A stretch of DNA of 63,991 bases, the filler included. It is 8 parts of 8 records of this genome, joined end to end, with 100 filler letters (N's around TTAATTAATTAA, not from the genome) between each part and the next. Parts side by side here need not be neighbours in the genome. Positions count along the whole stretch, not along the records: positions 1 to 15,082 come from SRR31156797_10714; 7 more parts are not named here. One strand, 5' to 3'. Shown here one piece after another: positions 1 to 15,082 of this stretch. The notes below the pieces were generated by a model. That model made no database searches. It worked only from the letters and a program-made list of their open reading frames with translations, and was not told the DNA's origin. Both the position numbers and the translations under genes were made by a program. Numbering within the stretch: the first letter of the stretch is position 1; every line of letters begins with the position of its first letter.

Positions 1-26
1 TGGGCGAACTGCCGTTAGCCCCTACA
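1..26 (-). repeat. GTAG-type REP hairpin inside the RAYT coding sequence
   Basis: Minus strand TGTAGGGGCTAACGGCAGTTCGCCCA: GTAG followed by a GGGC..GCCC imperfect hairpin; inverted relative to the 316-341 copy. Confidence 0.8.
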
Positions 27-289
27 ATTTCAATTAACAAATGTATGTGATTTGGCATAATAACATAATTATGAATTTTTAATTCCTTCCGAATTTTTTC
101 AGAAATCAAAATTTCATCGTCAACAATTTTCCCGAATTGATTCAAAGACATTATTTTGTTATTAATATTACCAAAGATTTGTTCTTTTTGATACGTACAA
201 AATGTTATAAAATAAATTCCTTCTTTCGAGTAATCATAATTTTTCAATCTAATGGATTTTCTTCTGTGTATATCCGGATTATATTTCAT
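2..289 (-). mobile_element. REP-associated tyrosine (HUH/Y1) transposase, RAYT/TnpA-REP type, 5' part; runs off the window edge
   Basis: Not in the ORF track. Manual translation from ATG 289 (GGGGG SD upstream): MKYNPDIHRRKSIRLKNYDYSKEGIYFITFCTYQKEQIFG...YVIMPNHIHLLIEIVGANGSSP. Has the RxSIRLxxYDY, YFITxCT and MPNHIH (HUH) motifs. Confidence 0.9.
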
Positions 290-315
290 CAATCCCCCTA
301 TATAAAAATAAACCC

Positions 316-341
316 TGTAGGGGCTAGCGGTCGCTCGCCCA
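316..341 (+). repeat. GTAG-type REP hairpin upstream of RAYT
   Basis: TGTAGGGGCTAGCGGTCGCTCGCCCA: GTAG tetranucleotide plus GGGC-T-AGCG/CGCT-C-GCCC hairpin. Confidence 0.8.
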
Positions 342-409
342 AATGAAGTTAACTATTAACTTACACCACCTTCATATCCGCCAAAGTTTACTTGTTTTTT
401 AATAAAAAC

Positions 410-431
410 AGGAAAACCGCATGGTTTTCCT
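410..431 (-). terminator. Probable intrinsic terminator after the MNT-HEPN gene
   Basis: Perfect inverted repeat AGGAAAACC-GCAT-GGTTTTCCT followed by a T-rich tract on the minus strand. Confidence 0.65.
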
Positions 432-461
432 TATGTTGTTGGAGTACTAATAAATTTTAAC

Positions 462-1571
462 TTATTCTAATGTTTCTATCTCCCCTATTTCAAGTCCTGT
501 CATTTCTGAGATAACTTTAATATCCAGACCTTTTTTCAGCATTTTTAGTGCAGTTTCAATATTAGCTTCTTTTTTAATTCCAGCAACTTTCTTCTGCTCT
601 TCAAGTTTTGCACGTTCTCTATCTTCGTAGAAACCATCGATAGATGCATCTGTATTCTTGATTTTTTCTTTCAGTTCATCAGATAGATTATCAATCTGCA
701 TTGAGAAATCAACTATAAATTCTCTACATAAAGTTTCAGCAAGCTTTTGCAGTGTCTTCACTCGCTCAAGCATGTAGTCTAATTCCGCAGATGAGATCAC
801 GTAGTCTTTCTTATATCGCGAATCAATATATGCGTCATTCAGTTTCTTGAATAACTTAGTTTCCTCTTTCGTTCTACAAGGGAACGCTTCTTCGAATTTA
901 GCATTAAGCTCCATTACTCTCTTATGCAGATCAACCAAGTCATGTGATTTAGGTTTGTAATCTGTATAAACCAAATGGATTCCCATAAAAAGGTGCTCAG
1001 TTGTTTGGTGAAGGTGGAAAGCAGCTAAATTATATTCTTTATTTTCATAATAAAAGGCAAATCCTCTAAGAAAACCGTCCGCACTATTAAGCCACTTTTC
1101 ATAGTAGTATCTGGCTTTCATTAACCTTGTATCTTTTGGCAGTTCTGCTGGTGGCGTTTCCACAGCGTATATTCCCGAGTCGTATAGCAAAACCCCTTCA
1201 TTGTATATATCCAGAAAGAAGTAGTTTCGTTCCTTAAGCTCACCATTGAAATAATCGATACCGTGAAAGATAGGACTAAGTCTAGTTTCGATCTCAACAT
1301 TTTGTCTGATTCGTCTAGTAAGTCCTTTAGTCAAAGCTGAAGTTCTGGATAGTTTTTCGTTTTTCATGACAAACAAAAGGTCATAATCACTCTGATACTC
1401 ATACATAGTACCACCTTCATTATATTTGTCCTCTACCCAAGTATCACGAGCATAACTACCGAATAGGATCACCATCTCCACTTCGGTACCCTTTGCAGTT
1501 TTTAGAAACTCGATCATATTATTTAGTTCATTTTGTTTTTCTATTGGTAAATATGTTATTGAAGTCTTCAT
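462..1571 (-). CDS. Minimal nucleotidyltransferase-HEPN fusion protein with Rpn/YhgA-like C-terminal tail
   Basis: ILFGSYAR...SDYDLL (MNT GS..DxD); AFHLHQTTE, KSHDL and AYIDSRY (HEPN); tail ETALKMLKKGLDIKVISEMTGLEIGEIETL. Confidence 0.85.
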   Translation of the reverse strand: MKTSITYLPIEKQNELNNMIEFLKTAKGTEVEMVILFGSYARDTWVEDKYNEGGTMYEYQSDYDLLFVMKNEKLSRTSALTKGLTRRIRQNVEIETRLSPIFHGIDYFNGELKERNYFFLDIYNEGVLLYDSGIYAVETPPAELPKDTRLMKARYYYEKWLNSADGFLRGFAFYYENKEYNLAAFHLHQTTEHLFMGIHLVYTDYKPKSHDLVDLHKRVMELNAKFEEAFPCRTKEETKLFKKLNDAYIDSRYKKDYVISSAELDYMLERVKTLQKLAETLCREFIVDFSMQIDNLSDELKEKIKNTDASIDGFYEDRERAKLEEQKKVAGIKKEANIETALKMLKKGLDIKVISEMTGLEIGEIETLE

Positions 1572-1713
1572 TTATAATACACCCCTAAAATAGTTTATAT
1601 TACTTTATTATTGCATAATTTTATTTTAAATTGATATAGTTATTATAGCTTAGTTGAGTGGATTTTGTATAGGAAATTTATCGTTCTTCCTATGATAGCA
1701 TTTTTCATTTTTC

Positions 1714-4700
1714 TTACTCTTTAATATCTTCTAAAGTAAAATAATAGAGTAAAAAGTTTACGAATTCATTCACTGTTAGTTGAATACTCTTTAGTTGTCT
1801 TATCCACTCTTTAGTTTCATCCAATTTTAATGAAATTTCATCGTTTTCAGAAGAGTTTTTAAGAAATAAATTTGAAGAAATTTGATTAATTAAATCTACC
1901 AAATATTCATAATCTTCATCATTTAAATTTTCTAAAATGTCATCGCAAATATCTACACAAGCAATATAACTTTTCGGAGCTTCTTCAAGTTTATTATTAT
2001 CTATAAAGTCATCTAAAAAGCTTTGATAAATTATCTGACTATCATCATTTGCCTCCAATTTTTCTAAGTTTAAAAATTGTAAAATAAGGTTTAAAGCTAA
2101 AATAAGCTTATTGAAGCTTACATAAAATATATTTATTTCCTTAATTTCTTTACTATAGTCTTCCCATTTTTTAATCTTATAGTTTTTCATAATGTTCTCA
2201 TCTACTTCATCTACGTTTAAATCAAATATGTTAGGTTCATCAAATTTTTCACTTAATAATCTGTGTATCCGAATTTTAAATATTACATTACTTAGAATTT
2301 TCCCTTGAACCAATATTAAAATTTTGAAAAAATTATATTTAGATTCTAAATATAAACATTCAAATTTTTTATCTATATAATTGTATAAAGTATCTTTTAA
2401 CTCTTTAAAGATAAATTCAGGATAGTTTGAGGCTATTAGAAAGTCTTTTGAATTAATTACAATTAATTTTCCCAATTTCTCTTTATCATTTATATCAAAC
2501 ATTCTAATTTTAGTTTCGTCTGTTTCTAAATTCTCTACCTTAGAAAGTATGTTTTTCTCGATTTCTCTTTTTTTCTTTTCTATACTAATACTTGCTTTTT
2601 TTATAATACTGGGAGTTCTAAAGTAATTAGGATTTGTGAATTCAATCCAAAGTTGAAATAAAAGTTCTATTTTTTCCCTTTCTTCTTTTTCAAGAATAAT
2701 TAATTCACCCTTATCAATAAAATTTTTAAATATACTCTTAAATTCTTTTTGAAAATCAGGAATTTCTTTATATAAATCTGCTATATTAATAAAACTCAAA
2801 TGAATTAGTCTTTTAATTTCATCCTCCTCATATATAAGTTTAAAATTTTTATTATCTATAAAATTATAGGTTTGTTGAAAAACATCTTTCGATAAGTTTA
2901 AAAAATTAAATAAGTATGAAGAAATATCATTCAATGCTTTTCTGTAGTTTTCATATTTTTTTATACTCATTTGAGATGAGAGAAGTTCTGTATTCTGCCC
3001 TTCTTTATTGAATCCCCACTTATCAACTATAACAGCAGGAAATAGAAGTTTATCTTGATTTTCTTTCATTACTTTTTTCCATTCTTCTGTAGTAACTATA
3101 TCTCCTAAAATTTTAACTTTTTTCTTATTACTGAAGTGCCGAGAAATCCCTCGTATTAATTTATTAATAACAAACAAATTGTTTTTTCTAATTTCAATAG
3201 CTCTATCTATATATTGTTTCCAAGAATTCAATCGATACTTATACATAATCTTTCCTGAAAAAATAGAGTTTATCTTAACTAACCAAAATATTGGAAGATT
3301 TTTTTTAGGAATATCCTTATCCACTTTATTTGCATGTCTGTAATCTTCAGGTATAATTTCCAATTCATCCCCGTATGTCCGCGAAGAAAAAATTTCTCTG
3401 TCCGGATATATTCTTCTCAAAACTTCTAACTGCTCTATTATTCTACTATATGTATCAGCAGAATTCTCAAATAAATTAATAAGATAATGTGCTTTTATTT
3501 TATTCCCATCATCTTCTAAAATTGGAATATTCCATGATTTTTTTAATTTTGGTAAAAATATTTTTCTGATATCTTTTATAATTTCTAAACCTTTAGGTAA
3601 ATTGCTATAATATAATCCTAAAGATAAATCACCAATATGCTCTATTTCAAAATTTTGAAGCAGATTCTTATTTATAAAATTATCAGGGTCAATTTTTTTA
3701 TTAATCTCTAATTTTCCACTCCAAAACAAGTACTCCCCTAGTTTTGAAATTTCTAAAGAATTATTTATTCTTTCCTTTGGAAGCTTAGTTTCTTTTAAAA
3801 ATTTTATTGCTCCTTTAAAAACTTCTTTTCTACTTGAAGCCAACGTCTTATGCCATGTATCTATCTTTTCTTTTCCCTCTTTATAGTCTTTACCTAATTT
3901 TTCTAAAATATTTATTGATTCAAACTGACCAGTTAAATCAAATCCCAATCCAGAAAATGCAGAAGCACCTACCATTTCTATAACTTCATCAATTGTCTTA
4001 ATATTTATTTCCACAAAATTATTTATTCCAAGCCAAAACAAACTATTTAATACCCCCGTTACACCATTCCAAGAAGTGAATTCAAAAGTATTTAAATTAT
4101 CTAATAACTCTTCGATATCCAAATTATAGAAAAAATAATTCAAAAGATATATTTCCATACTAGACTCATTTAACAACTTAAAACACTTAAAAGCATAATC
4201 TTTTTTTGGTGAATATAGTTCATCAAATAATATTTCTGATAATATTTTTGACCTGATAGGATGTAATCCTTTCAAATAATACTCATCCTCTGTTTTTTGA
4301 ATTAAATATTCCTTTTCTAAAGACTCTATTAAGAATTTAGGTGTTATAAGATTTAGATGTTTTAGCATTTTTCTTATCTCAATTAATCCTCCATATGCAT
4401 CAGAAAGAGCAACTAACTTTAATATTTCTAATTTCTGCTCGTCTTTTTCATCAACAATGCTTTTTTCAATATTATATATTTGTTGTTTTAATCTTTCATA
4501 TAAAGTGTTTCCTTGAGTAATTAGGTATACAAATTCTAATAAAGGTCCTTGTTCGTTAAATTTAATCCATGCTTCTTCAAAGTTTAAAAACATTTCATTT
4601 TGGGTTTTATTATTTAAATTATCATAAATTTTTTCTGCCTCTAATTTTTCCAAGTTTAACTCAATATCAGAAAAAAGTAATTCATAACTACTAATCTCAG

Positions 4701-5850
4701 CTTTCTTCCAATCTTCTTCTCTAATAGTTACCAAAATCTTAATATTAGAAAAATCAACTGAAAGCTCTTTAACAATATTAATCCAATTAGAATTACTTGG
4801 CTCAACATCAATATATAACATTATTGGTAAATTTACCGAATTTGAAATTCCATTTAGAGCATTTATAATTCTCCTTGCTTGCTCTTTATCTTGGATGTTT
4901 AGAACTTTATATGCATAACAACTAGGAATGTTTTCATATAGATATCTATAAGCTAGAGTGCTTTTTCCTTGACCAGAAGCTCCGTGAACAATAACAACAT
5001 TATTTTTTACAAATTGCTTTTTAATTAAATTAGTTTTTTCTTCTCTAACCACATCCAAGTTATTTTTAATATGTTCATACCTAGCAGAAATACCAATATA
5101 AAATTCATCCCTCAATCTCATAATATTTTCTTCTGAATTTTCCATATTAATATAATCTAATGCGTGAAATGATTTTCCGAATTCTTTATGAAAATCTTCA
5201 CGTTCGGTAAGGAATTTACCAATATTAGTTAGCTTTTCTAGTAAATATTTTCTAGTTATAACTTCCTCTTTTTCTGAGACATCATATATCCAATACATTA
5301 GCAATTCAAAAGCAATATCTACATCATAACTAACTAAAGGGTTTTCCTGTAAAATCGTTCTAATCTTTTCTTTTAAATCTTTTTCATTAACCTTTTCTAT
5401 CTCCAAATTGTTGAATATTAATTCCAGAGAGTTTTTTTTATATCCAACATTATACTTAATCATCTTATCAATGATTTTATTACGTTTGATTTTGCATTCA
5501 TTTATCGCATCTTTTAGCTCGACTCCAATCTCACCAAAGCTAACAATTTTAAATAAAGTGTTTGGCGCTTTCTCTATATGAATTTGAGATCTTTGAAAAA
5601 AGGAATCTTTCTTTTTGGGGGAAAATGTTGATAAAGATAAATCGCGTGAATAGTTCTTTACTTGTATTATTTCCTTTAAGTTGTTATCATCATCTAAAAT
5701 TGATAAATCTTCTTCACCTTCTGGCTGAAATTTATAATCTTCTTGCTCGTAAGTTAATATGCGATTTACAATATATAATGTTTGGGTTCTAAAACCTCTG
5801 AAAGCTGCCTCTGCTCCTATATCTGAACTCCTTCTATTATTCTTTGACAT
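1714..5850 (-). CDS. Large PD-(D/E)xK (Cap4/Mrr-like) nuclease-STAND-type P-loop ATPase; candidate Avs/NLR-like anti-phage protein
   Basis: N-terminal GAEAAFRGFRTQ...PEGEED...QVK; Walker A GASGQGKST; Walker B-like MLYIDVE; GPLLEF and LHPIRS motifs; long C-terminal region. Start moved to ATG 5850 (GGAGG SD); the ORF track starts at 5877. Confidence 0.7.
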   Translation of the reverse strand: MSKNNRRSSDIGAEAAFRGFRTQTLYIVNRILTYEQEDYKFQPEGEEDLSILDDDNNLKEIIQVKNYSRDLSLSTFSPKKKDSFFQRSQIHIEKAPNTLFKIVSFGEIGVELKDAINECKIKRNKIIDKMIKYNVGYKKNSLELIFNNLEIEKVNEKDLKEKIRTILQENPLVSYDVDIAFELLMYWIYDVSEKEEVITRKYLLEKLTNIGKFLTEREDFHKEFGKSFHALDYINMENSEENIMRLRDEFYIGISARYEHIKNNLDVVREEKTNLIKKQFVKNNVVIVHGASGQGKSTLAYRYLYENIPSCYAYKVLNIQDKEQARRIINALNGISNSVNLPIMLYIDVEPSNSNWINIVKELSVDFSNIKILVTIREEDWKKAEISSYELLFSDIELNLEKLEAEKIYDNLNNKTQNEMFLNFEEAWIKFNEQGPLLEFVYLITQGNTLYERLKQQIYNIEKSIVDEKDEQKLEILKLVALSDAYGGLIEIRKMLKHLNLITPKFLIESLEKEYLIQKTEDEYYLKGLHPIRSKILSEILFDELYSPKKDYAFKCFKLLNESSMEIYLLNYFFYNLDIEELLDNLNTFEFTSWNGVTGVLNSLFWLGINNFVEINIKTIDEVIEMVGASAFSGLGFDLTGQFESINILEKLGKDYKEGKEKIDTWHKTLASSRKEVFKGAIKFLKETKLPKERINNSLEISKLGEYLFWSGKLEINKKIDPDNFINKNLLQNFEIEHIGDLSLGLYYSNLPKGLEIIKDIRKIFLPKLKKSWNIPILEDDGNKIKAHYLINLFENSADTYSRIIEQLEVLRRIYPDREIFSSRTYGDELEIIPEDYRHANKVDKDIPKKNLPIFWLVKINSIFSGKIMYKYRLNSWKQYIDRAIEIRKNNLFVINKLIRGISRHFSNKKKVKILGDIVTTEEWKKVMKENQDKLLFPAVIVDKWGFNKEGQNTELLSSQMSIKKYENYRKALNDISSYLFNFLNLSKDVFQQTYNFIDNKNFKLIYEEDEIKRLIHLSFINIADLYKEIPDFQKEFKSIFKNFIDKGELIILEKEEREKIELLFQLWIEFTNPNYFRTPSIIKKASISIEKKKREIEKNILSKVENLETDETKIRMFDINDKEKLGKLIVINSKDFLIASNYPEFIFKELKDTLYNYIDKKFECLYLESKYNFFKILILVQGKILSNVIFKIRIHRLLSEKFDEPNIFDLNVDEVDENIMKNYKIKKWEDYSKEIKEINIFYVSFNKLILALNLILQFLNLEKLEANDDSQIIYQSFLDDFIDNNKLEEAPKSYIACVDICDDILENLNDEDYEYLVDLINQISSNLFLKNSSENDEISLKLDETKEWIRQLKSIQLTVNEFVNFLLYYFTLEDIKE

Positions 5851-6011
5851 AATTCCTCCAATATTAAAAAATTTCAATTTAGATACTGATTAACATTAAA
5901 TTGATAGTATTTAGAAAAGTTATAATTTTTTTATTTAAAATGAACTCGTTTTAATTCATCCTGCTGATTAAAATTAGAAAAATAAAATATTTTTTTATAA
6001 TAATAGCTATT

Positions 6012-6788
6012 TTAGTTAGATATTTTACTTTTCAAATAGTCACTAATTAAGGGGTATGTTAGTATAAAACCCAAAAATAAAATAAGTGTACGCAAAATTT
6101 TAAATGTTTTTTCTGAGATTCCCCAAACAGTTACAACATCTATTTTGAATTTAACAACGTTACTAGCATCAACATTAGTTTTTTCGTCATTTAGAAAGAA
6201 AGCGTTATTCTTTAGTGAATAATGTGGTGAGTTAACTATAAACTTTCTTAAATCTAAATCTATTATCTGCTCTAATCCAGTTTTTTTAGGCGAAATATTC
6301 CAAGAAAATAAAATTGGAAATGACGTATTTTTCTTAATTTTTTGTTTTCCATTATTAGGTGTAATATTAAAAACACTCGAATAAAGTAAAATATCGCTTT
6401 CATGTGATACAGTTGAAATATCTCCAGTTTTATCTGTTGATTCTTTAATAATTTCTAATTCAACATGTTGGCTTTTATTATTCTGCATTTTTTTCAAGTA
6501 CTTAATTCTGAAATTATATTTGATTTCAACTTCATTCAAAATATCAACGTTCTCACTTACAGTTTCATTACTTTGATAAAACTGTTGGTAATATAACTGT
6601 GAATAATCATACACTTTTCTTTTATATAGCCTAGAAATTGAAATTGAAGTACTATTGCTGTCAATTGCTTCACCTTTAAATAATATGGCAGAAGTAAAGA
6701 AAAAGAAATTAATTGATACTAAAAAAAATGTTAAACCTATTGAAAAAAATATTTTTTTAATAAATGAATTATTATATGAAATTTTCAC
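6012..6788 (-). CDS. Hypothetical membrane protein with N- and C-terminal TM segments
   Basis: Hydrophobic runs near both ends; likely GTG start at 6788 after a GGAGG SD (ORF track start 6821). Confidence 0.6.
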   Translation of the reverse strand: MKISYNNSFIKKIFFSIGLTFFLVSINFFFFTSAILFKGEAIDSNSTSISISRLYKRKVYDYSQLYYQQFYQSNETVSENVDILNEVEIKYNFRIKYLKKMQNNKSQHVELEIIKESTDKTGDISTVSHESDILLYSSVFNITPNNGKQKIKKNTSFPILFSWNISPKKTGLEQIIDLDLRKFIVNSPHYSLKNNAFFLNDEKTNVDASNVVKFKIDVVTVWGISEKTFKILRTLILFLGFILTYPLISDYLKSKISN

Positions 6789-6881
6789 GATAATCCCTCC
6801 TAAATATTGATTTAATAACAATTTAAAGCTTATTATTTTGGGTACATGAAACTTGTTTGATTAATTAATCCTTGTTAATTT

Positions 6882-7406
6882 TTAATTTTCTATATGATAA
6901 ATTAAGTTATTTGAAATTTTTTTTATTATTTTGGGTAAATACAGAATATAATCATCAAAAGTTGAAGTTTCATCTAAGAATGCTCCATGATAATTATTTA
7001 TAAAGTTATTGATTTTATCCCTTTCTTTTATGTTTATATTCCCTAAAATATCACTCGTGTTATACTCCCATGAGTTAGATAAATGTATAAAAGCACATCC
7101 AAAGTCATATACATTCTTACACCAAGGGTCATATATTTCTTTCGAAATCATTTCAAAATCTGTATATCGTCTTCGATTTGTGTTTTTCCAGACACCATTA
7201 TCAAAAAAATTAATTAATAAATCCTTTTTGACATCAGGATTATCAATATTTTTATAAAATATTACTCTAATATATGAATCCAATTCTTGCCTAATTAGTG
7301 ACAAACAATTACCATAATATTTATTTTTATAAAGTAAGTCAAACGATTTTAAGTTTTCAATACTTCTATCTTTAACAATTCTAAAAAACCTTTCTTCATT
7401 ATTCAT
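6882..7406 (-). CDS. Hypothetical protein, possibly HEPN-like (DUF5677-like)
   Basis: 174-aa ORF with GAGGAG SD; LIRQELDS and VYDFGCAFIH motifs resemble divergent HEPN families. Confidence 0.5.
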   Translation of the reverse strand: MNNEERFFRIVKDRSIENLKSFDLLYKNKYYGNCLSLIRQELDSYIRVIFYKNIDNPDVKKDLLINFFDNGVWKNTNRRRYTDFEMISKEIYDPWCKNVYDFGCAFIHLSNSWEYNTSDILGNINIKERDKINNFINNYHGAFLDETSTFDDYILYLPKIIKKISNNLIYHIEN

Positions 7407-7445
7407 AATTCCACTCTCCTCGTTAAGTATTTATTTCTAACCTAA

Positions 7446-7474
7446 ATTATACACCTTCTCACTATTCTTCACAA
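7446..7474 (-). promoter_or_regulatory. Sigma70-type promoter for the minus-strand island genes
   Basis: TTGTGA-17 bp-TATAAT about 40 bp upstream of ATG 7406. Confidence 0.6.
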
Positions 7475-7683
7475 ATTACAAAAACCTCATATGTAGCAAA
7501 AATCGATGCTATAAACATGTAATAATTAAAAAAATAATAATATTAACATATTTTTCATTATAAACCCACTTATCAATCCAATAATAACACCAAAAAATAA
7601 TTTATACTTTCCCATAAACACGTTGTTCCAATCTATCCTATCTTAATATTCAGTAATAATAATATTCTCCCCATATTCATAAC

Positions 7684-7835
7684 ATATTACTCTTGTTGAA
7701 AGCCTCGAAAAGCAATAAAATTATAGTGCTAGAACTGTTTCAAGACAAAAAAGTCTAATTAAAAACAAAATATTAATATATTGCACAAATTGATAATATA
7801 TTACTCTTGTGGCATTTCTTCAAAAACGCTAAAAT
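7684..7835 (+). promoter_or_regulatory. Two tandem sigma70-like promoters sharing an upstream ATATTACTC element
   Basis: TTGTTG-17-TAAAAT (7693-7721) and TTGTGG-17-TAAAAT (7807-7835), both starting ATATTACTCTTGT; period 114 bp. Confidence 0.5.
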
Positions 7836-8086
7836 TATTTGTAGATATCAGATATCTAACAACATCATCTTATCCTGCTAGGAACTATATATTTTTATTA
7901 GTCTTTTTATATATATTTCTTAGTAGGATTACTCGGATATTTGTATTATGAATTTTTTATTGTGGAGACAGCTACATTGAGCTTTGAATAATTTATTATT
8001 TAGGAAATATTGTTGGTTTCAAGGTTCTTTTGGTTTTATTTTACTTTTATATCTAATCTTAATATATTATTTTTTACAGGAGGAGT

Positions 8087-8301
8087 TAGAACATGAAAAA
8101 AATGATCTTTCTATGCCTTCACCCAAATATGCACAATAGGTTTCTCCTAGACAGGAGAAACCGACAACAAGGGAGGAGGTAGGTTCTTATTACGACTTAC
8201 TACAGATTCTTGCGGCAGATATCCTCTTACAAAAAGAAAACTAGAACATGAAAAAAATGATCTTTTTATACCTTCGCCCAAATATACGCAATAGGTTTCT
8301 C
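8087..8301 (+). repeat. 60-bp direct repeat pair (8087-8146, 8242-8301)
   Basis: 55/60 identical, all five differences transitions; perfect hairpin GGTTTCTCCT-AGAC-AGGAGAAACC at 8139-8162. Confidence 0.9.
8093..8182 (+). CDS. Putative 29-aa peptide MKKMIFLCLHPNMHNRFLLDRRNRQQGRR
   Basis: Strong AGGAGG SD upstream of the ATG; not in the ORF track; translation unproven. Confidence 0.3.
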   Translation: MKKMIFLCLHPNMHNRFLLDRRNRQQGRR

Positions 8302-8414
8302 TCTATACTAGTCTAATCATTATCACAAGGAAATATTCATTCAAAGTAGTATAATATTAACAGGGTGATTGGAAATACTTTGTTAATATAATTTGGTAAA
8401 GAGGAGTTGATAAA

Positions 8415-9158
8415 ATGAAAAGAAAAATAATGTTAATTATTTTTATATTTATCTCAACAATAGTTTTTGCTGAAAAATTAGTTTTTGTAGGAGCAAATTC
8501 ATTAAATGCTCCTATATTTAAATGGTTCGGAAGAATTGAAGAGGAAGCATTAAGTCGCTTAGGTTATGAGTTTGAGTTTAAGGAAGTTCCTGCGAAGAGA
8601 GCATCTGTAATATTAAATTCAGGAGAAGTGGATGCTGATCTCGCCAGAGTTTATTCTTACGGTGCATCATTTAAAAATATTGTAAGGGTAGAAGAAAAAA
8701 TGAATACTACTACATTTGCCATTTATGCAACTGATGAGAATATAAAAATTGATGGATGGAAAGGACTTCAGGGAACAAACTATAAAGTTGAGTTTAAACG
8801 TGGTGTATTAATTGCTGAAAAAACTCTTCCTAAGTTTGTAGCTAAAAAAAATATAGATTCATCTCCAAATTTTGAAGTAGGGATTAAAAAATTATCAACA
8901 GGTAGAGTTGATATTTATATTGGTAATTCATTTAGAGTTGACCTTACAGTTAAAAACTTAAGAAAATCTGGTCAGCTTAAGAAGGAAGTTTATAAAGTAG
9001 GAGTAGCACAAGAAATACCAATTCACCCATACTTACATAAGAGACATGCTGCTCTAGCACCAAAATTTGCTGAAGTATTAAGAGATATGAAAGCTGAAGG
9101 TAGATTTGAAGAATTAAGAATAGAAGTAGGATTGCCGGAAGGTGCAGTTGAATGGTAA
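8415..9158 (+). CDS. Substrate-binding protein, family 3 (amino-acid type)
   Basis: Signal peptide; VPAKRA..LNSGEVD and KLSTGRVDIYI motifs; GAGGAG SD. Confidence 0.8.
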   Translation: MKRKIMLIIFIFISTIVFAEKLVFVGANSLNAPIFKWFGRIEEEALSRLGYEFEFKEVPAKRASVILNSGEVDADLARVYSYGASFKNIVRVEEKMNTTTFAIYATDENIKIDGWKGLQGTNYKVEFKRGVLIAEKTLPKFVAKKNIDSSPNFEVGIKKLSTGRVDIYIGNSFRVDLTVKNLRKSGQLKKEVYKVGVAQEIPIHPYLHKRHAALAPKFAEVLRDMKAEGRFEELRIEVGLPEGAVEW

Positions 9159-9225
9159 AATGACACCATAAAACAATAAAACAAAAGAGGGTGCCCAAAA
9201 GGACATCTGAACAATAAATTTGTCT

Positions 9226-9257
9226 AACGACTCCTTATTTTTAAGCGAGTCGTTTTA
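9226..9257 (+). terminator. Probable intrinsic terminator
   Basis: AACGACTC...GAGTCGTT hairpin followed by a T-run. Confidence 0.55.
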
Positions 9258-9277
9258 ATTTTTTTGAAAATTTACTC

Positions 9278-9328
9278 TTGCATAATTTCTATTCATGAGG
9301 TAATATTCTTCTTAATGGGAACGTTCCC
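9278..9328 (+). promoter_or_regulatory. Sigma70 promoter with LacI-family-type operator
   Basis: TTGCAT-17-TAATAT (9278-9306), then the perfect palindrome GGGAACGTTCCC (9317-9328) with central CG. Confidence 0.65.
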
Positions 9329-9349
9329 TGAAAATAAAGGAGGGGTAAT

Positions 9350-10528
9350 ATGAAACATAACAGCGAAAAGCAAGTCTATTTTTTTGCACTAACATGTGCT
9401 ATCTGGGGTATGTTTTGGGGTAGTTGGGGAGTACTGCTACCTGAGATCAAAAACAGATTAGCAGTAAGTGAAGGGATGTTTTCTCTATCACTTACAGGAA
9501 TAGCACTAGGAGCAATACCTGCGATGCTTTTTACAGGTATGCTGATCAAAAAATTTACCAGAATTACACTATTTTTAACTCTGGCTTTTTTTGCAATGTC
9601 AATTTTTCTACTTATTTTTGTAGATTCATTACCAATGTTAGGTTTATCACTTTTTCTGGTAGGTATGTCATCAGGAGTAGTTGATATCATCATCAATTAT
9701 GGAGTTTCGATATTAGAGTCTGTAACAGGCAAAAAATATTTCAACTTTGTTCACTCAGTTTTTCCGATAGTAGCAATAGTTGTCAGTCCAATTACCGGAT
9801 TTGCCAGACAGCTACAGATTGATTTTAGACTGATTATATTGACTCTCAGCTTAATAGTTTTAATCTCTGGTCTATTGTGCTTAAGGTTAGATAACAAGGT
9901 ATTTGATGTTAATGATATGAATCAAAAAAGTGAAAAAAATAAGTTCTCTATTTCAAAATTGATTATTTATTTTGGAATAATAGGTTTACTTATCCATGTG
10001 CTGGAAAATGCTGTGGAGCAATGGAGTACGTTATACCTTGAGACACAGTTTACTGCACAGCCGAATATTTCGAGTCTTGGCATAACAGCATATATGCTAA
10101 TGTTATTTATAGGACGAATACTTGCACAAAAGCTCAGTAATACAGTATCTGAAAAGTTTTTAATAAGAGGGGCCTCACTGATATTCATTACAGGTTATTT
10201 ACTTGTATTTAGTTCAAGCAGTGTTTTCCTTACTATTCTTGCATATGGAATAACAGGATTAGGAATTGCACCGGTAATTCCTCTAATATTCAGCAGAGTT
10301 AGTAAAAGTTGTACAGAGAAAGACAGGGCAAAAAATATAAGTTTGATTACCACAATTGCTTACTCCGGTTACTTAATCAGTCCGCCATTTGTTGGTCTAA
10401 TGATATCTGTTTTTAATCTAAAATTTGCATGGTTAATATTATCAATTGTTGCTATATTCACATTAGTATTAATTGTATTCGCAATGAGATATCTGGATAA
10501 TGAGAGAGTAGGTAATGTAACTGGCTAA
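9350..10528 (+). CDS. MFS transporter (probable sugar permease)
   Basis: 392 aa with about 12 hydrophobic segments; ENAVEQWS and MFS loop motifs. Confidence 0.85.
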   Translation: MKHNSEKQVYFFALTCAIWGMFWGSWGVLLPEIKNRLAVSEGMFSLSLTGIALGAIPAMLFTGMLIKKFTRITLFLTLAFFAMSIFLLIFVDSLPMLGLSLFLVGMSSGVVDIIINYGVSILESVTGKKYFNFVHSVFPIVAIVVSPITGFARQLQIDFRLIILTLSLIVLISGLLCLRLDNKVFDVNDMNQKSEKNKFSISKLIIYFGIIGLLIHVLENAVEQWSTLYLETQFTAQPNISSLGITAYMLMLFIGRILAQKLSNTVSEKFLIRGASLIFITGYLLVFSSSSVFLTILAYGITGLGIAPVIPLIFSRVSKSCTEKDRAKNISLITTIAYSGYLISPPFVGLMISVFNLKFAWLILSIVAIFTLVLIVFAMRYLDNERVGNVTG

Positions 10529-10539
10529 GTAATAAAAAA

Positions 10540-10569
10540 CGACGTAATAAATTTAAATTTATTACGTCG
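10540..10569. terminator. Bidirectional terminator between convergent genes
   Basis: Perfect 30-bp palindrome CGACGTAATAAATTT/AAATTTATTACGTCG. Confidence 0.65.
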
Positions 10570-10596
10570 ACTGCTTCTATTTTATTTAATTTAGTT

Positions 10597-11280
10597 TTAC
10601 TCAATTCCACCAAATCTATAACCAATTTGTGCTGACACAACAGATAATTCCACATCTCTATCTACACTACCTAGTTTAACAGTTGCAGTTTGTTGAATAA
10701 TCCCGCTAATTTCAAATAAAAAATTACTAATAGCAAAACCTAACGACATACCGATAAAACTGCCGTTACCAACTTCAACATCTACAGAGTTCAATTCTCC
10801 ATATTCTTCAAATGCCGGACTCTCGTTAGTAGCATAACCAATATCCAATGAAAAGTATTGTTCTATAAATAGAGGGTTAGCTGATAATTTTAATGATGCA
10901 TAAACTAAAGTTGACTCCATATAGTTCTCATCAATCTCACTATCTTTTTCCTTTCCATAAATCCTTTGAGCAACTCCAGCTCCAACATTTACCCAACAAT
11001 CAGCAAGAAAAGGTGAGCCAAGTAACATTTGCCCTTCATTGAACAGATAAAAATCCTCAAATGGATAGAACTCTATATCATATACATAGCCACTTTCTAA
11101 ATCTATAGCATCAACATCATCACTTGCTTCGGCTGAATCCATAGCCTGCAGATCACCACCAACTTTTAGCTCTACTTTTGCTGCCATTGTTAATCCTGAT
11201 ACAAATAACAAACACAGTATAATCAAATATTTCCTCATAGTCATATCACCTTTCCCTTTTGCTATATAATAAAATTTCAT
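10597..11280 (-). CDS. Putative outer-membrane beta-barrel protein
   Basis: Signal peptide from MRKYLII (true start probably downstream of 11280); alternating beta-strand pattern; C-terminal IGYRF. Confidence 0.55.
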   Translation of the reverse strand: MKFYYIAKGKGDMTMRKYLIILCLLFVSGLTMAAKVELKVGGDLQAMDSAEASDDVDAIDLESGYVYDIEFYPFEDFYLFNEGQMLLGSPFLADCWVNVGAGVAQRIYGKEKDSEIDENYMESTLVYASLKLSANPLFIEQYFSLDIGYATNESPAFEEYGELNSVDVEVGNGSFIGMSLGFAISNFLFEISGIIQQTATVKLGSVDRDVELSVVSAQIGYRFGGIE

Positions 11281-11443
11281 CTTAGTGTTTCAAGAGAACT
11301 CTTAATCAACAAAACAATCAATTGTTTAGTGATTTAGTATACAATATATTTAATTAAAGAATCATTTAACGTTACTATATTACCATATATTTTTACTAAT
11401 AGCTAAGGGATTTAGCAAATATACTTATAAAAACTTAATCAAC

Positions 11444-12418
11444 TTACAAATATTTTTCAACTATCTCTTTTATAATCTTTTTATCCTCATTGCAACCACT
11501 CATTTGAAGCACAACTTTTTTACCCTGTAGTTTATCCTTAATCTTAAGAGCAGCTCTAATAGTTGAGGCCCCTGATCCTTCAGCTAAATTTTTAGTATGA
11601 CTAAGAGCCATCGCCATTCCTTCTTTGATCTCCTCTTCACTAAGTAAAACAAAGTCACTTAACTGATCCTTATAGATACTGAAAGGAATCTCATAACCTG
11701 TTCCTGTTGCAAATCCTCCTGCAAATGTTTTATTCTCAGAGCTTTGTATTTCTTGGTTTTTCCATGACAGATAAGCAGCTTTTGAACTTTCTGCTTGTAC
11801 AGCTATGATTTCAATATTAGGATTATGCTCTTTTAGCACAATAGTTGCTGCTGCTAATTCACTACCGGCACCTATTGGCAGTATAACTACACCTACATCT
11901 GGTAAATCTCTTATAATCTCCAGAAATTCCGTACCCACACCATTAATCAAATGTGGTTCATTTGCAGCATGTACAAAGTATAAATTTTCCTTTTCACTAA
12001 TTTCAGCTACTACTTGAGACGCTTCTTCGAAATCTTTACCTGCTTCTATTAGTCTTGCACCTGCATTTTTTATCATCTCATTTTTAGCCTTATTATTTCC
12101 TTCAGGTACTACAACTGTTGCATTAACACCGTAGAATTTAGCAGATGTAGCAACAGATATACCGTGATTACCTGTAGTAAAAGTAATTACTCCATCTATG
12201 TTATTCTCTTTAACATGATGCATTAGGTTTAACCCGCCTCGTATTTTGAAGCTTCCTCCTATATTATGATTTTCATGTTTTACATATACTTCCGCACCTA
12301 TTAGATCAGATAGGCTTTTATAATGAGCAAGTGTTGTTTCTTTTAGATGTTTCCTTACAATTTTTTCAGCTAATTTAACTTCTTCCAGATTAATTGGATG
12401 ACTTTTTAGATTTTGCAT
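11444..12418 (-). CDS. PLP-dependent threonine/serine dehydratase family protein
   Basis: KHEN..GGSFKIRG PLP-lysine motif; TGNHG; PIGAGS. Confidence 0.88.
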   Translation of the reverse strand: MQNLKSHPINLEEVKLAEKIVRKHLKETTLAHYKSLSDLIGAEVYVKHENHNIGGSFKIRGGLNLMHHVKENNIDGVITFTTGNHGISVATSAKFYGVNATVVVPEGNNKAKNEMIKNAGARLIEAGKDFEEASQVVAEISEKENLYFVHAANEPHLINGVGTEFLEIIRDLPDVGVVILPIGAGSELAAATIVLKEHNPNIEIIAVQAESSKAAYLSWKNQEIQSSENKTFAGGFATGTGYEIPFSIYKDQLSDFVLLSEEEIKEGMAMALSHTKNLAEGSGASTIRAALKIKDKLQGKKVVLQMSGCNEDKKIIKEIVEKYL

Positions 12419-12445
12419 TTTTTCTCCTTTTGTATAAAAATTTTG

Positions 12446-12853
12446 CTATTTAATATAGTCATTTTCGAATATATAATTTACTACTCTTCCTTTTATAATG
12501 ATACGCTTCTCATTAGCTGTAAATCTTATATATCTTCTACCAGACTTCTCAACATGTATATCCTCCCATGGAATAAGTATTGCTTTGTGCATAAAAGAAA
12601 AAACAATATTTGGTTTAAGTTTTATACCGTTCTTATACACACTTATATTCATTATTCCGTCATAGTTAGTAAAGATTCCTAAACGTATACTTTGAAAACG
12701 AAAAATTTTGATTTCATTTAAACGATAATCATCAAAAGCATATTTCCCAGCCAGTTTATGCCAACCACCTATAAATGAAACTAATCCAATTATAGCTACC
12801 CATAAAAAAGGGAAAACTATAAGAAACAGCAGGTCACTATTCATACTCTCCAT
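12446..12853 (-). CDS. Hypothetical membrane-anchored protein
   Basis: N-terminal TM helix followed by GGWxxLA; IPWEDI motif. Confidence 0.6.
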   Translation of the reverse strand: MESMNSDLLFLIVFPFLWVAIIGLVSFIGGWHKLAGKYAFDDYRLNEIKIFRFQSIRLGIFTNYDGIMNISVYKNGIKLKPNIVFSFMHKAILIPWEDIHVEKSGRRYIRFTANEKRIIIKGRVVNYIFENDYIK

Positions 12854-12863
12854 ATTTTTTCAC

Positions 12864-13631
12864 TTACTCCTTTTCGTTTAATAAATCACGTACATGCATT
12901 ACACTCCCCTGAGGAAATTCTTCCTTTTCCAACAGATAAATTATTTCATCAGCTACTATTTCCGGTTCCAATAACATTCCGTTCTCTTTATAATGTATGA
13001 AATCATTTACATCTTTGAAGTTATCTTCATCTGTCTCTCTAATTTCTTTTTGCATTTGTGTATTTAATATTCCGGGAGAAATGGCTAAAATTTCTACTGG
13101 AAATATTTTACTCTCTTGCTCTAAAGCGACTGTTCTCGTAAACATATCTAAACCTGCTTTGGAGCTACAATATGAACTCCAACCATGATATGGATTTTTC
13201 CCTGCCCCGGATGAAACGTTTATTACTCTTTTTCTTATTGGCAGATCAGTAACTTTTTTTACAAATTCAGATGTCAAAATCATAGGTGCTGTTAGATTCA
13301 CGTTTATATTCTTTATAATTTCATGACTTTTGCAGTTCTCTATTGTCTTAATAGGATTAACTATTCCGGCATTGTTTATAAGGTAAATACCATCAGCCAG
13401 ACTCAAATCAATATCATAAAAGATTTTTTCCATCAGCATCTCAATATCATTTACATGATTCAAATCAAATTGATTATAGTGTAGATGACTGTTTCTATGT
13501 AATGATATTTCCAATAATTCTTTATTTGGATTTCTTGAGATACAAAACAGCGTATTTCCTTCACCTATTAATTTTTCAGCTAATGAGTGCCCCAACCCTC
13601 TAGAGGTTCCTGTTATGATATAATAGTTCAT
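12864..13631 (-). CDS. Short-chain dehydrogenase, benzil/sepiapterin reductase-like
   Basis: TGTSRGLG, NNAG and YCSSK catalytic motifs. Confidence 0.88.
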   Translation of the reverse strand: MNYYIITGTSRGLGHSLAEKLIGEGNTLFCISRNPNKELLEISLHRNSHLHYNQFDLNHVNDIEMLMEKIFYDIDLSLADGIYLINNAGIVNPIKTIENCKSHEIIKNINVNLTAPMILTSEFVKKVTDLPIRKRVINVSSGAGKNPYHGWSSYCSSKAGLDMFTRTVALEQESKIFPVEILAISPGILNTQMQKEIRETDEDNFKDVNDFIHYKENGMLLEPEIVADEIIYLLEKEEFPQGSVMHVRDLLNEKE

Positions 13632-13807
13632 ATTTCCTCTCCTTTATACTCACATTAATTTTATTTATTCTCTATAATAGAATACAGCAAATTCATAATT
13701 TTTCCTTTAATAGAATATATATTTAAGATAATTTAGTTCTTCAGAGTAATTCTCACTAAATAATATAAAAAGAGCAGTTAAGTAACTACTCTCAATATTT
13801 AAATTAT

Positions 13808-14896
13808 CTATTTTATTAATTCAAATTCTATTCTTTCTTTTTCATCACCATTAACTATTATGGATATAGCTTGAGTTCCTTCATAAAGTTTTCGTGTAGT
13901 ACGCTCTATAAATTCATAACCTTTTCTTTTTATCCTATACGAGCCTGGCAAATGATTTTTTTCAGATATTTTATACACTTTCCTTGCTAAAGTTCCGTTA
14001 GCCTTCAAAAAATGCACAGCATATTCCATTCGAACCAGTCTCTCTTTATTATCATTAACTTCCAAAGTAAAGCTAAGGCCCATTCTTTCACCGATTATAA
14101 TAGAATCACTTGTTAACTCAAAAGCTCTAATATCTAATTTTTCAGAATTACCTAGTCCAAATAGTTTCATAGCACGACGATCACCTTTTTTTAATAAAGT
14201 TCTACACGCATGTTTAATCAGTGAGTCTGTATTATCAGTTTTTCCATACCACTGTTCTGCTATATCTAGAATTACATCCGGATTATCTCTGGAAATTGCA
14301 TTAAGATTATTAGCCACACTTCTTCTTACATATTCTGATTCATCATTTTTTAATTTCTCCAGTATAGGCAATATATAAGCTGGCTCCTTTTTGAATAAAG
14401 GTAAACCTATTCCCCACGGATGACTGGGCCTACATCCTTCACTTGCATATCGACGTACGTTTTCATTTTCATACTCTGTTAATTTCAGTAAGTATTCAGC
14501 TGTCTCTTTAGGTTTATTTATTAGAAACGGACGTATAGCAAATTCAGATGAGCTATGCTTGGTAAACTCTGTCAAAGCATACATAGATATATCCCAATGA
14601 TCTTGACCATAGACAGCTACGTAATCAGGAAATGTTACTGATTCCCACCACTCTATTTCCGGAATAGCTTTTATGAAAATATTAATAGTTTCTTCAAATG
14701 ACTCAGGCATAACGTCATGTAAGCATAGTGCTACATGGCGTACTTTCTTCATTATAAATAATTTATTCCAATTTGAATCAAAAACTAAATTCAGAAATTT
14801 TTCCCTATCAAATTCTGAATAGTATTTACTTAATACTGTAGTCATATTCTCCATTGATTCCTTTGTAAAGTAACTATCATATATATTATCTTCCAT
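13808..14896 (-). CDS. DNA alkylation repair protein (AlkC/AlkD HEAT-repeat glycosylase family)
   Basis: SSEFAIRPFL, VRRYASEGCRP..PW and YVRRSVANNLN motifs, plus a C-terminal beta-rich domain. Confidence 0.85.
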   Translation of the reverse strand: MEDNIYDSYFTKESMENMTTVLSKYYSEFDREKFLNLVFDSNWNKLFIMKKVRHVALCLHDVMPESFEETINIFIKAIPEIEWWESVTFPDYVAVYGQDHWDISMYALTEFTKHSSSEFAIRPFLINKPKETAEYLLKLTEYENENVRRYASEGCRPSHPWGIGLPLFKKEPAYILPILEKLKNDESEYVRRSVANNLNAISRDNPDVILDIAEQWYGKTDNTDSLIKHACRTLLKKGDRRAMKLFGLGNSEKLDIRAFELTSDSIIIGERMGLSFTLEVNDNKERLVRMEYAVHFLKANGTLARKVYKISEKNHLPGSYRIKRKGYEFIERTTRKLYEGTQAISIIVNGDEKERIEFELIK

Positions 14897-14950
14897 TATT
14901 TTTACTGTTCCTCCTTAGTTTTCGCATAATTCATAAGTAATCTTTCTTAT

Positions 14951-14981
14951 ATGATACTACTTTACCTAAGGTTAAGGTCAA
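14951..14981 (-). promoter_or_regulatory. MerR-type promoter (19-bp spacer with dyad)
   Basis: TTGACC-TTAACCTTAGGTAAAGTAG(19)-TATCAT; dyad CTTAACCT-T-AGGTAAAG with one mismatch. Confidence 0.65.
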
Positions 14982-15082
14982 TAAAAATCTTTTATACTTT
15001 GTTTCAACTAAAAACCTCTATTAAATTAAAAACAAGAGGCTGACTAAAAAGTCTTTAAAAGGTTTTTACCCGAGATTTAGCG

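Follow-up and report, generated by a model that had tools for sequence, protein, structure and literature searches.

What is the role of a gene whose product joins a nuclease to a STAND module and a large region of unrecognized fold, and to what cue would such a product respond? The question is raised by a gene at positions 1714-5850, on the minus strand, of a DNA stretch of 63,991 nucleotides (nt), hereafter the window, which joins eight parts and takes its positions 1 to 15,082 from SRR31156797_10714. The protein has a Cap4/DUF4297 nuclease at residues 1-220, a STAND nucleoside triphosphatase (NTPase) at residues 221-592, and a C-terminal region at residues 593-1378, an arrangement that agrees with the effector-STAND-sensor architecture proposed in a preliminary description of this DNA. 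It displays the features that broadly define an Avs protein, namely a STAND NTPase with Walker motifs A and B, an N-terminal effector of a type found in defense, and a large C-terminal sensor. The answer favored here, with somewhat better than even confidence, is that the gene encodes a single-protein antiviral STAND receptor (Avs-type, NLR-like) that acts as an abortive-infection sensor.

An Intact Gene with Conserved Motifs

The open reading frame (ORF) list and the translation give a single open frame of 1387 codons on the minus strand, which extends over 1714..5877 and begins with a TTG. The ATG at 5850 is the likely start codon; a Shine-Dalgarno-like GGAGG, read from the sequence at 5855..5859 on the same strand, lies 4 nt 5' of it, while the in-frame TTG at 5877, located 5' of the ATG, has no such site. 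Because the first in-frame ATG is preceded by GGAGG, the product is taken to be 1378 amino acids (aa) long. The whole coding sequence, 1714..5850, consists of 1378 codons and a stop (1714-1716), as given by the ORF list, the translation, and the full-length homologs. The preliminary description placed one gene of about 1380 aa here and named no strand; the intact frame confirms the gene and supplies the strand. All features of the gene given below lie on this strand.

Every motif listed in the preliminary description is found in the translation: GAxAAxxGFxxQ as G12-A-E-A-A-F-R-G-F-R-T-Q23, ExxED as E44-G-E-E-D48, QVK as Q63-V-K65, the Walker A motif as G290-ASGQGKST-298, and LYIDVE, GPLLEF, and LHPIRS as L345-YIDVE-350, G435-PLLEF-440, and L529-HPIRS-534, respectively. 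Conservation was read from an alignment of the window protein with 61 full-length homologs (62 sequences) and from a smaller set of 34 sequences. In the larger alignment E44, E47, D48, Q63, K65, S292-K296, R377-E379, E439, F440, H530, and R533 are invariant; D348 reaches at least 90% conservation there and is invariant in the smaller set (34/34). Judged from the alignment, the listed motifs are not chance occurrences. Of the 141 positions with 90% or higher conservation in the 61 homologs, the window protein retains 132 (39/39 in the nuclease, 63/66 in the NTPase module, and 30/36 in the sensor), and the window copy therefore looks functional rather than a relic. The exact protein was not found in a collection of 15 billion proteins. 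Its closest relatives are only 40-41% identical, which indicates that this branch of the family is sparsely sampled.

Nuclease Head and STAND Module

An AlphaFold2 model of residues 1-640, built with the 61 homologs, has a mean predicted local distance difference test (pLDDT) score of 87.9. Compared with known structures by Foldseek and VIA-align, its N-terminus is structurally of the Cap4 type, and residues 1-220 (5191..5850) are modeled as a PD-(D/E)xK nuclease domain, the effector. A nuclease fold is thus predicted where one had been expected; of the earlier label "Cap4/Mrr-like", the first half stands, as a Cap4/DUF4297 type, and the Mrr assignment does not. The predicted active site, by analogy with PD-(D/E)xK nucleases, is formed by residues 44-65 (5656..5721), in which E44, E47, D48, and Q63-V-K65 are invariant in 62/62 sequences; these motif residues map to model strands 40-43, 49-52, and 58-65, which follow a long N-terminal helix. 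Among 34 family members, the Pfam Cap4_nuclease model matches 8 and the PADLOC LmuA model, which is Cap4-type, matches 15. The predicted self-association of two copies of the Cap4 domain (residues 1-225) scores 0.45, with one control at 0.28, and argues neither for nor against dimer formation.

The model of residues 221-592 (4075..5190) consists of a nucleotide-binding domain, a helical domain, and a winged helix, which is the order anticipated for a STAND ATPase. Its closest solved matches are human SAMD9, over SAMD9 residues 647-1080, followed by Avs5, Avs3, NLRC4, and Apaf-1, so that the ATPase does not model as a non-STAND NTPase. The best Foldseek row for the model of residues 1-640 is Avs3 bound to terminase, with an E-value of 1e-13. 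Profile searches agree: nSTAND5 is matched by all 34 members (E ≤ 0.01), nSTAND3 by 32, nSTAND6 by 14, NB-ARC by 6, and NACHT by 4, and many homologs carry a precomputed nSTAND5 annotation. The window protein itself matches nSTAND3 at E 1.2e-4, and its only NCBIfam match is to a KaiC-like P-loop (E 0.0097). The NTPase is of the nSTAND3/5 group, to which SAMD9 and Avs5 also belong. When the PDB was searched by sequence, the single protein and a profile of the 62 sequences both returned P-loop segments only, and these matches were set aside as uninformative.

The individual motifs of the module can be placed on the model. Walker A (residues 290-298; 4957..4983), with S292-K296 as its invariant core, follows the strand 285-290. 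The Walker B-like LYIDVE (residues 345-350; 4801..4818) places D348 on the strand 343-348; the next residue, V349, is nearly invariant, and no conserved second acidic residue directly follows D348. In T-I-R-E-E-D (residues 375-380; 4711..4728), R377, E378, and E379 do not vary, and D380 shows 90% conservation or more. R377, at the end of the strand 370-377, is the probable sensor-1 arginine, a role that we assign by assuming correspondence with the hhhTxR motif of STAND NTPases. GPLLEF (residues 435-440; 4531..4548), with L437, E439, and F440 invariant and G435 and P436 at least 90% conserved, marks the start of the helix 437-446 and is presumably comparable to the GxP motif in the helical domain of NB-ARC proteins. 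LHPIRS (residues 529-534; 4249..4266), in which H530 and R533 are invariant, follows the beta-hairpin 517-519/525-528. Residues 492-541 are modeled as a helix-helix-hairpin-helix unit with H530 directly after the hairpin, and this residue is probably the winged-helix histidine, the counterpart of the "MHD" histidine. A conserved histidine, His545, is described in the nucleotide pocket of SeAvs7 by Lee et al. (PMC13581612, cited here and below from part of its text).

The C-Terminal Sensor

The remaining 786 aa (residues 593-1378; 1717..4074) form a conserved region, termed the sensor, which has a confident structure model and no recognized fold. The model, of residues 601-1378 (778 aa), has a pLDDT of 87.4 and a predicted template modeling (pTM) score of 0.83. 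It is composed of irregular helices and two alpha/beta units and lacks a repeat solenoid; a helical sensor had been expected, and the mixed alpha/beta model does not support a purely helical one. The preliminary description of an unrecognized region of about 800 aa remains accurate, as no convincing match was found in Pfam, PADLOC, the PDB, or BFVD. In the window protein, Pfam, PADLOC, and NCBIfam give no match past residue 384, a Foldseek comparison of the sensor model with the PDB and the BFVD viral structures yields nothing at E ≤ 1e-3, and the ESM Atlas returns no usable match for residues 600-1378 or 760-1100. A resemblance to DHH or family II pyrophosphatases (Foldseek E 0.3-1) was rejected when VIA failed to confirm it. 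No known fold is recognized in the predicted structure, and newness of the fold is not claimed.

In the scheme of Lee et al., according to the text available, a large C-terminal sensor comprises at least 400 aa; here 786 aa follow the winged helix. The median identity of the homologs to the window protein is 21% in the sensor, 39% in the nuclease, and 41% in the NTPase module, from which it follows that the sensor diverges faster than the nuclease and than the domain for nucleotide binding and oligomerization (NOD). Several polar residues of the sensor are nevertheless invariant or nearly so: D638, H788, R812, K845, N861, R873, R888, D943, and E1057.

A Widespread Family of Fixed Architecture

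A word-indexed search scored 7996 candidates, of which 837 proteins were homologous at E ≤ 1e-3. The top matches are full-length proteins of 1360-1441 aa with 28-41% identity to the window protein, and their sources are Halanaerobiales, Cyanobacteria, Methanobacterium, Methanobrevibacter, Natronincola, Aneurinibacillus, and many metagenomes. In the databases they are named "hypothetical protein", "DUF4297 domain-containing protein", or "nSTAND3/5 domain-containing". The same type of search with the sensor alone returned two proteins only, probably owing to low-complexity words that crowd the candidates. A HMMER profile of the sensor alone (46 sequences, 809 positions), searched against 1.84 billion representatives at 50% identity, gave 1076 matches at E ≤ 1e-3, 865 at E ≤ 1e-10, and 590 at E ≤ 1e-30. 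In the best 150 of these, the sensor starts near residue 585-610 of a protein of about 1400 aa or lies in a collinear fragment truncated at the N-terminus; the shorter matches, 44 of the 135 compared within this set, are all collinear truncations. None of the best 150 of the 1076 matches carries an alternative N-terminal effector or NTPase on the sensor. These comparisons indicate that the gene is a member of a large family of fixed architecture and about 1400 aa, and not an orphan.

Sensor swapping was considered for three relatives that tblastn matched over the N-terminal half only, and was discarded once hhalign revealed the same sensor in diverged or shortened form. The hhalign probability for the sensor is 100 for a Deinococcus plasmid relative, 98.6 for a Hymenobacter plasmid relative, and 99.5 for scaffold MT836892. 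The plasmid form of Hymenobacter tibetensis (L084:3881-7858) has 1325 aa and keeps the first ~500 residues of the sensor without the QGYGH and AVDEWGF-type motifs. The form on MT836892.1, an unverified "Bacteriophage sp." scaffold (L085:5080-8412), has 1110 aa and lacks the last ~300 sensor residues. On the Acaryochloris marina plasmid pREB4 (L083:4896-9725), the tblastn match ends inside a coding sequence of 618 aa, which is followed by an IS1-like ISAcma4 transposase gene and then by a hypothetical coding sequence of 640 aa; this homolog may be a family member split by an insertion sequence.

A scan of one genome per species across 185,579 species found at least 184 stretches that encode a confirmed relative; the scan relied on two peptide patterns, which makes this count a minimum. 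The phylum spread was read from the 80 loci kept, which belong to Bacillota, Bacteroidota, Cyanobacteriota, Chloroflexota, Thermodesulfobacteriota, Planctomycetota, Acidobacteriota, Myxococcota, Campylobacterota, Pseudomonadota, Nitrospirota, and methanogens. The distribution is patchy and covers at least 12 phyla, methanogens included; the family seems to be absent from the enterobacterial hosts used in most tests. In a FastTree phylogeny, the Bacillota require four origins, and a methanogen is placed inside a Bacillota/Bacteroidota clade beside the window protein, whose own placement is unsure because of composition bias. The only relative found in a collection of viral contigs, at 4980-12170 of IMGVR_UViG_2599185225_000002, adjoins two type II DNA methyltransferase genes.

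Genomic Neighborhood

The flanks of the homologs share little. Clustering of 897 flanking ORFs from 81 loci produced a largest cluster that is present in only 7 loci, and none of the window neighbors joins any of the 24 largest clusters. The STAND gene is stand-alone, without a conserved partner gene. The nearest neighbors of the homologs are heterogeneous and rich in conflict genes: across 74 loci, 27 of 130 nearest-neighbor proteins match a PADLOC model at E ≤ 1e-8, and 21 of 130 are left after generic TPR, sigma-54, HTH, and ankyrin matches are set aside. A gene of a named defense system is an immediate neighbor at 10 of the 74 loci. With a published null of 0.0153 per gene (PMC13581612), the binomial P is 2e-7, a rough indication only, as the published null was obtained with another tool, another window size, and another counting unit. 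The named neighbors are Drt3b, a GmrSD-like HEC-05, a type I S subunit, PtuB with a type III methyltransferase, a type IIG restriction-modification gene, pPIWI_RE, PifA, LmuB, an MBL-type LmuA/Avs1a, and Ppl. In Maribacter polysiphoniae (L073:731-6869; L074 and L076 are identical), the region immediately upstream of the homolog contains a complete Lamassu system, 134 nt from the start of the homolog, which comprises two LmuA-type genes, one of them MBL-type, along with LmuC and an LmuB of 1051 aa.

In the window, the GC content is 22-26% across ~1500-8000 and 30-36% in the flanks; the left boundary of this low-GC insert is at or beyond the start of the window. The window has no tRNA, rRNA, or other Rfam match and no integrase, and the rest of it contains ordinary chromosomal genes, such as those for transporters, dehydrogenases, and amylase. 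A gene for a fused protein of 369 aa, resembling a toxin-antitoxin pair of a minimal nucleotidyltransferase (MNT) and a HEPN domain, lies 142 nt downstream of the STAND gene, at 462-1571 on the minus strand. Its product has a Pol-beta-type MNT at residues ~15-130 (Polbeta, NTP_transf_2, and a weak SMODS/CBASS-cyclase match), HEPN at 157-277 (E 4e-13), and a C-terminal tail like the end of Rpn-family proteins (TIGR01784, E 3e-6). A terminator-like hairpin at 431-410, after this gene, is the only one on the minus strand of the low-GC stretch. Two further minus-strand genes lie in the same stretch: 6012-6821 encodes a protein of 269 aa with hydrophobic N- and C-terminal segments and no assigned function, and 6882-7406 encodes one of 174 aa with a weak DUF5677 match (E 0.018). 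Both are without a notable PADLOC or NCBIfam match, and homologs of the STAND gene are not accompanied by either of them. A partial minus-strand ORF at 2-292 has a weak match to IS200-like Y1 transposases (PF01797, E 0.0024), below the cut-off, and may be a REP-associated or IS200-type transposase that marks the edge of the insert.

Proposed Mechanism and Alternative Explanations

The steps of a mechanism can be proposed by analogy with Avs3, Avs4, and Avs7 (title of PDB entry 8dgc; PMC13581612, in the part available). At rest, the protein would be an autoinhibited monomer in which the sensor and the NTPase keep the nuclease inactive. The C-terminal region would bind a cue of infection, for which a conserved phage protein is the most likely candidate, after which the NTPase module would open, bind a nucleoside triphosphate, and oligomerize. 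The Cap4 domains brought together in this way would become an active DNase that degrades DNA indiscriminately, and the infection would be stopped at the expense of the cell, that is, by abortive infection. The gene would act alone on the low-GC insert, with no operon-level system formed with its neighbors.

Several observations weigh against this antiviral interpretation. Defense, abortive infection, oligomerization, and a protein trigger are all argued by analogy. At the level of profiles, the window protein has neither a Pfam Cap4_nuclease match nor a PADLOC match (E ≤ 0.1), its nSTAND5 match (PF25199; 32.1 bits, E 1.2e-7) falls short of the 34-bit cut-off, and the PADLOC Avs and Dsr1 models (PADLOC-DB v2.0.0) match 0/34 members at E ≤ 0.01. 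The sensor, unlike that of most described Avs families, is not a TPR-like repeat, and its conserved polar residues K845, N861, R888, and E1057 would likewise suit a small molecule or a nucleic acid as ligand. The single conserved acidic residue of Walker B, D348 followed by V349, suggests that hydrolysis may be weak or differently catalyzed and may be less important than the binding of nucleotide. The count of defense neighbors is one of single hidden Markov model matches rather than complete systems, and is given without a matched same-genome control. Phylum labels are strongly clustered on the tree of 58 full-length proteins (14 changes, where 11 is the minimum and shuffled labels average 40), which points to spread mainly within phyla with occasional long-range transfer and not to rampant transfer. 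A set of 2.9 million viral contigs yielded a single locus, and only five plasmid records in 72,556 contain a relative.

A more specific form of the antiviral reading is put forward tentatively and is held to be well short of even. It proposes a distinct, unnumbered Avs family in which a new non-repeat sensor fold of 786 aa is placed on a SAMD9/Avs5-type NOD, with members from Bacteroidota and Cyanobacteria to methanogens; the conserved polar residues would form the recognition site, and the trigger would be common to bacterial and archaeal viruses or would be a non-protein signal.

Unlikely, yet the strongest of the competing explanations, is a three-module receptor of the same build whose sensor reads a non-protein cue, such as a nucleic-acid structure, a nucleotide or other small molecule, or the disturbance of a host factor. 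The absence of a repeat scaffold, the two alpha/beta units, and the polar residues conserved from bacteria to methanogens would suit such a cue. Conservation over this range fits either a non-protein cue or a protein fold common to all tailed viruses. Core tailed-virus proteins are common to bacterial and archaeal viruses, and a protein trigger can for this reason account for the conservation as well. In the sensor, no fold that binds nucleotides or nucleic acids is recognized, although a search with the whole 778-aa model can miss single domains. The available text of PMC13581612 supplies evidence on both sides, in that some STAND proteins sense the perturbation of a host chaperone, whereas the Avs families with known triggers sense phage proteins.

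A role outside antiviral defense, in another conflict or in housekeeping, is improbable; the gene might, for example, serve conflicts between mobile elements or between plasmids, act as an addiction module for the island, or process DNA in a regulated manner. Homologs do adjoin integrases, a type IV secretion system coupling protein, and transposases, some are carried by plasmids, the window copy sits on its low-GC insert beside the MNT-HEPN gene, and the clustering of phylum labels would be compatible with such a role. However, the characterized Avs3 (8dgc) and Avs7 (PMC13581612, in part) are built in the same way, with a STAND NTPase and a large sensor joined to a Cap4 nuclease, named defense genes are frequent as immediate neighbors, and the great majority of species genomes lack the family. 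Last, a multi-gene system formed with the MNT-HEPN gene or the two upstream genes is very improbable: all four genes share the minus strand and the low-GC stretch, and its sole minus-strand terminator-like hairpin follows the HEPN gene, but none of these neighbors recurs beside homologs in the 81 loci, gaps of 142 nt and about 160 nt lie between genes, and a promoter and terminator scan does no better than shuffled sequence (53 promoter-like sites vs 56.3 expected).

Significance

What NLRs are to animals and plants, Avs proteins are to bacteria, and each characterized Avs family has revealed a viral component that cells can recognize. The trigger of the present family would extend the catalog of sensed molecules to other lineages and viruses than those of the Escherichia coli model, archaeal viruses included. 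The family joins a non-TPR sensor to a NOD type common to human SAMD9 and is widespread in bacteria and archaea; should the sensor indeed be a new non-repeat fold, it would represent a new recognition principle in a class dominated by TPR-like sensors. While the Avs design is known, what seems to be new is an unnamed and untested family with a sensor unlike solved structures. For the window itself, the outcome is a routine annotation, that of an intact defense-type gene on a low-GC insert.

Comparison with Known Systems

The broadest frame for comparison is the census of Lee et al. (Nature 2026, PMC13581612), which, in the text available, covers 359,879 STAND representatives in 589 clades, 198 of them defense-associated, groups the sensors of the defense-associated clades, which are mostly TPR-like, into 684 structural clusters, and names Avs7, Avs8, and Avs10-24. 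The present family is probably inside this data set, since the seeds included BLAST hits of Cap4 effectors. Six of its members were not found in the smaller supplementary files of that paper. A 2026 preprint (10.64898/2026.08.25.746987, in the portion available) regards only Avs3, Avs4, Avs5, and Avs7 as well characterized. No publication was found that names or tests a Cap4-nSTAND5 family with such a sensor, with the proviso that the 2026 census may include it.

Among the characterized receptors, SeAvs3 (AVAST type 3) is represented by its structure bound to a phage terminase (PDB 8dgc). The window protein has no detectable sequence relationship to SeAvs3, is shorter (about 1380 aa vs about 2000 aa), and carries a NOD nearer to SAMD9 and Avs5 than to Avs3. 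The 778-aa sensor model matched no Avs3 chain (Foldseek against the PDB at E ≤ 1e-3, and VIA), a comparison in which single-domain matches can be missed. Another is SeAvs7, described in the available part of PMC13581612 as a Cap4-STAND-TPR protein that senses the major capsid protein together with EF-Tu, and as the model for autoinhibition and tetramer-driven DNase activation. Like SeAvs7, the window protein is a single-gene receptor with a Cap4 nuclease head on a STAND NTPase. By the same account, the sensor of Avs7 is a TPR domain with two lobes and is homologous to that of Dsr1, whereas the window sensor is mixed alpha/beta; the 34 members have no Pfam TPR and no PADLOC Dsr1 match, which sets them apart from Avs7 at the sequence level only.

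In its NOD, the window protein resembles the group of Avs5, Avs6, Avs9, and human SAMD9 (nSTAND3, PF20720). The Avs5 NTPase is assigned to Pfam nSTAND3 in the available text of the Avs5 paper (10.1101/2025.07.08.663546), and Legrand et al. (PMC12680541, in part) describe SAMD9-like Avs6, with a PNP effector, and Avs9, with the order AlbA_2-SIR2-NTPase-TPR-OB; the window protein has nothing but its NOD type in common with these two. Of the STAND classes, nSTAND1 and nSTAND2, and not nSTAND5, are defined in the portion of Kaur et al. (PMC8195603) consulted. The effectors of this group differ from the Cap4 nuclease found here, with SIR2 in Avs5, PNP in Avs6, and AlbA_2 with SIR2 in Avs9/SAMD9 (PMC12680541, in part). 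Pfam detects no SIR2, AlbA_2, TPR, or OB domain in the window protein or the 34 members, and neither Foldseek nor VIA pairs the sensor model with a chain of SAMD9 or Avs5.

A last group of systems has the nuclease type in common with the window protein and differs in how the nuclease is governed. In LmuA, DUF4297 (HerA-DUF4297, Hailibu), CBASS Cap4, and HamA, the nuclease is controlled by a separate partner or ligand, these being the SMC-like LmuB/LmuC, the HerA ATPase, a SAVED domain with a cyclic nucleotide, and the HamB helicase, respectively. No conserved LmuB, LmuC, or HerA partner accompanies the family in the 81 loci, and the sole Lamassu neighbor, that of Maribacter polysiphoniae and its copies, has its own LmuA and LmuC. 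Unlike LmuA, HerA-DUF4297, CBASS Cap4, and HamA, the Cap4 nuclease of this family is fused to its own STAND switch.

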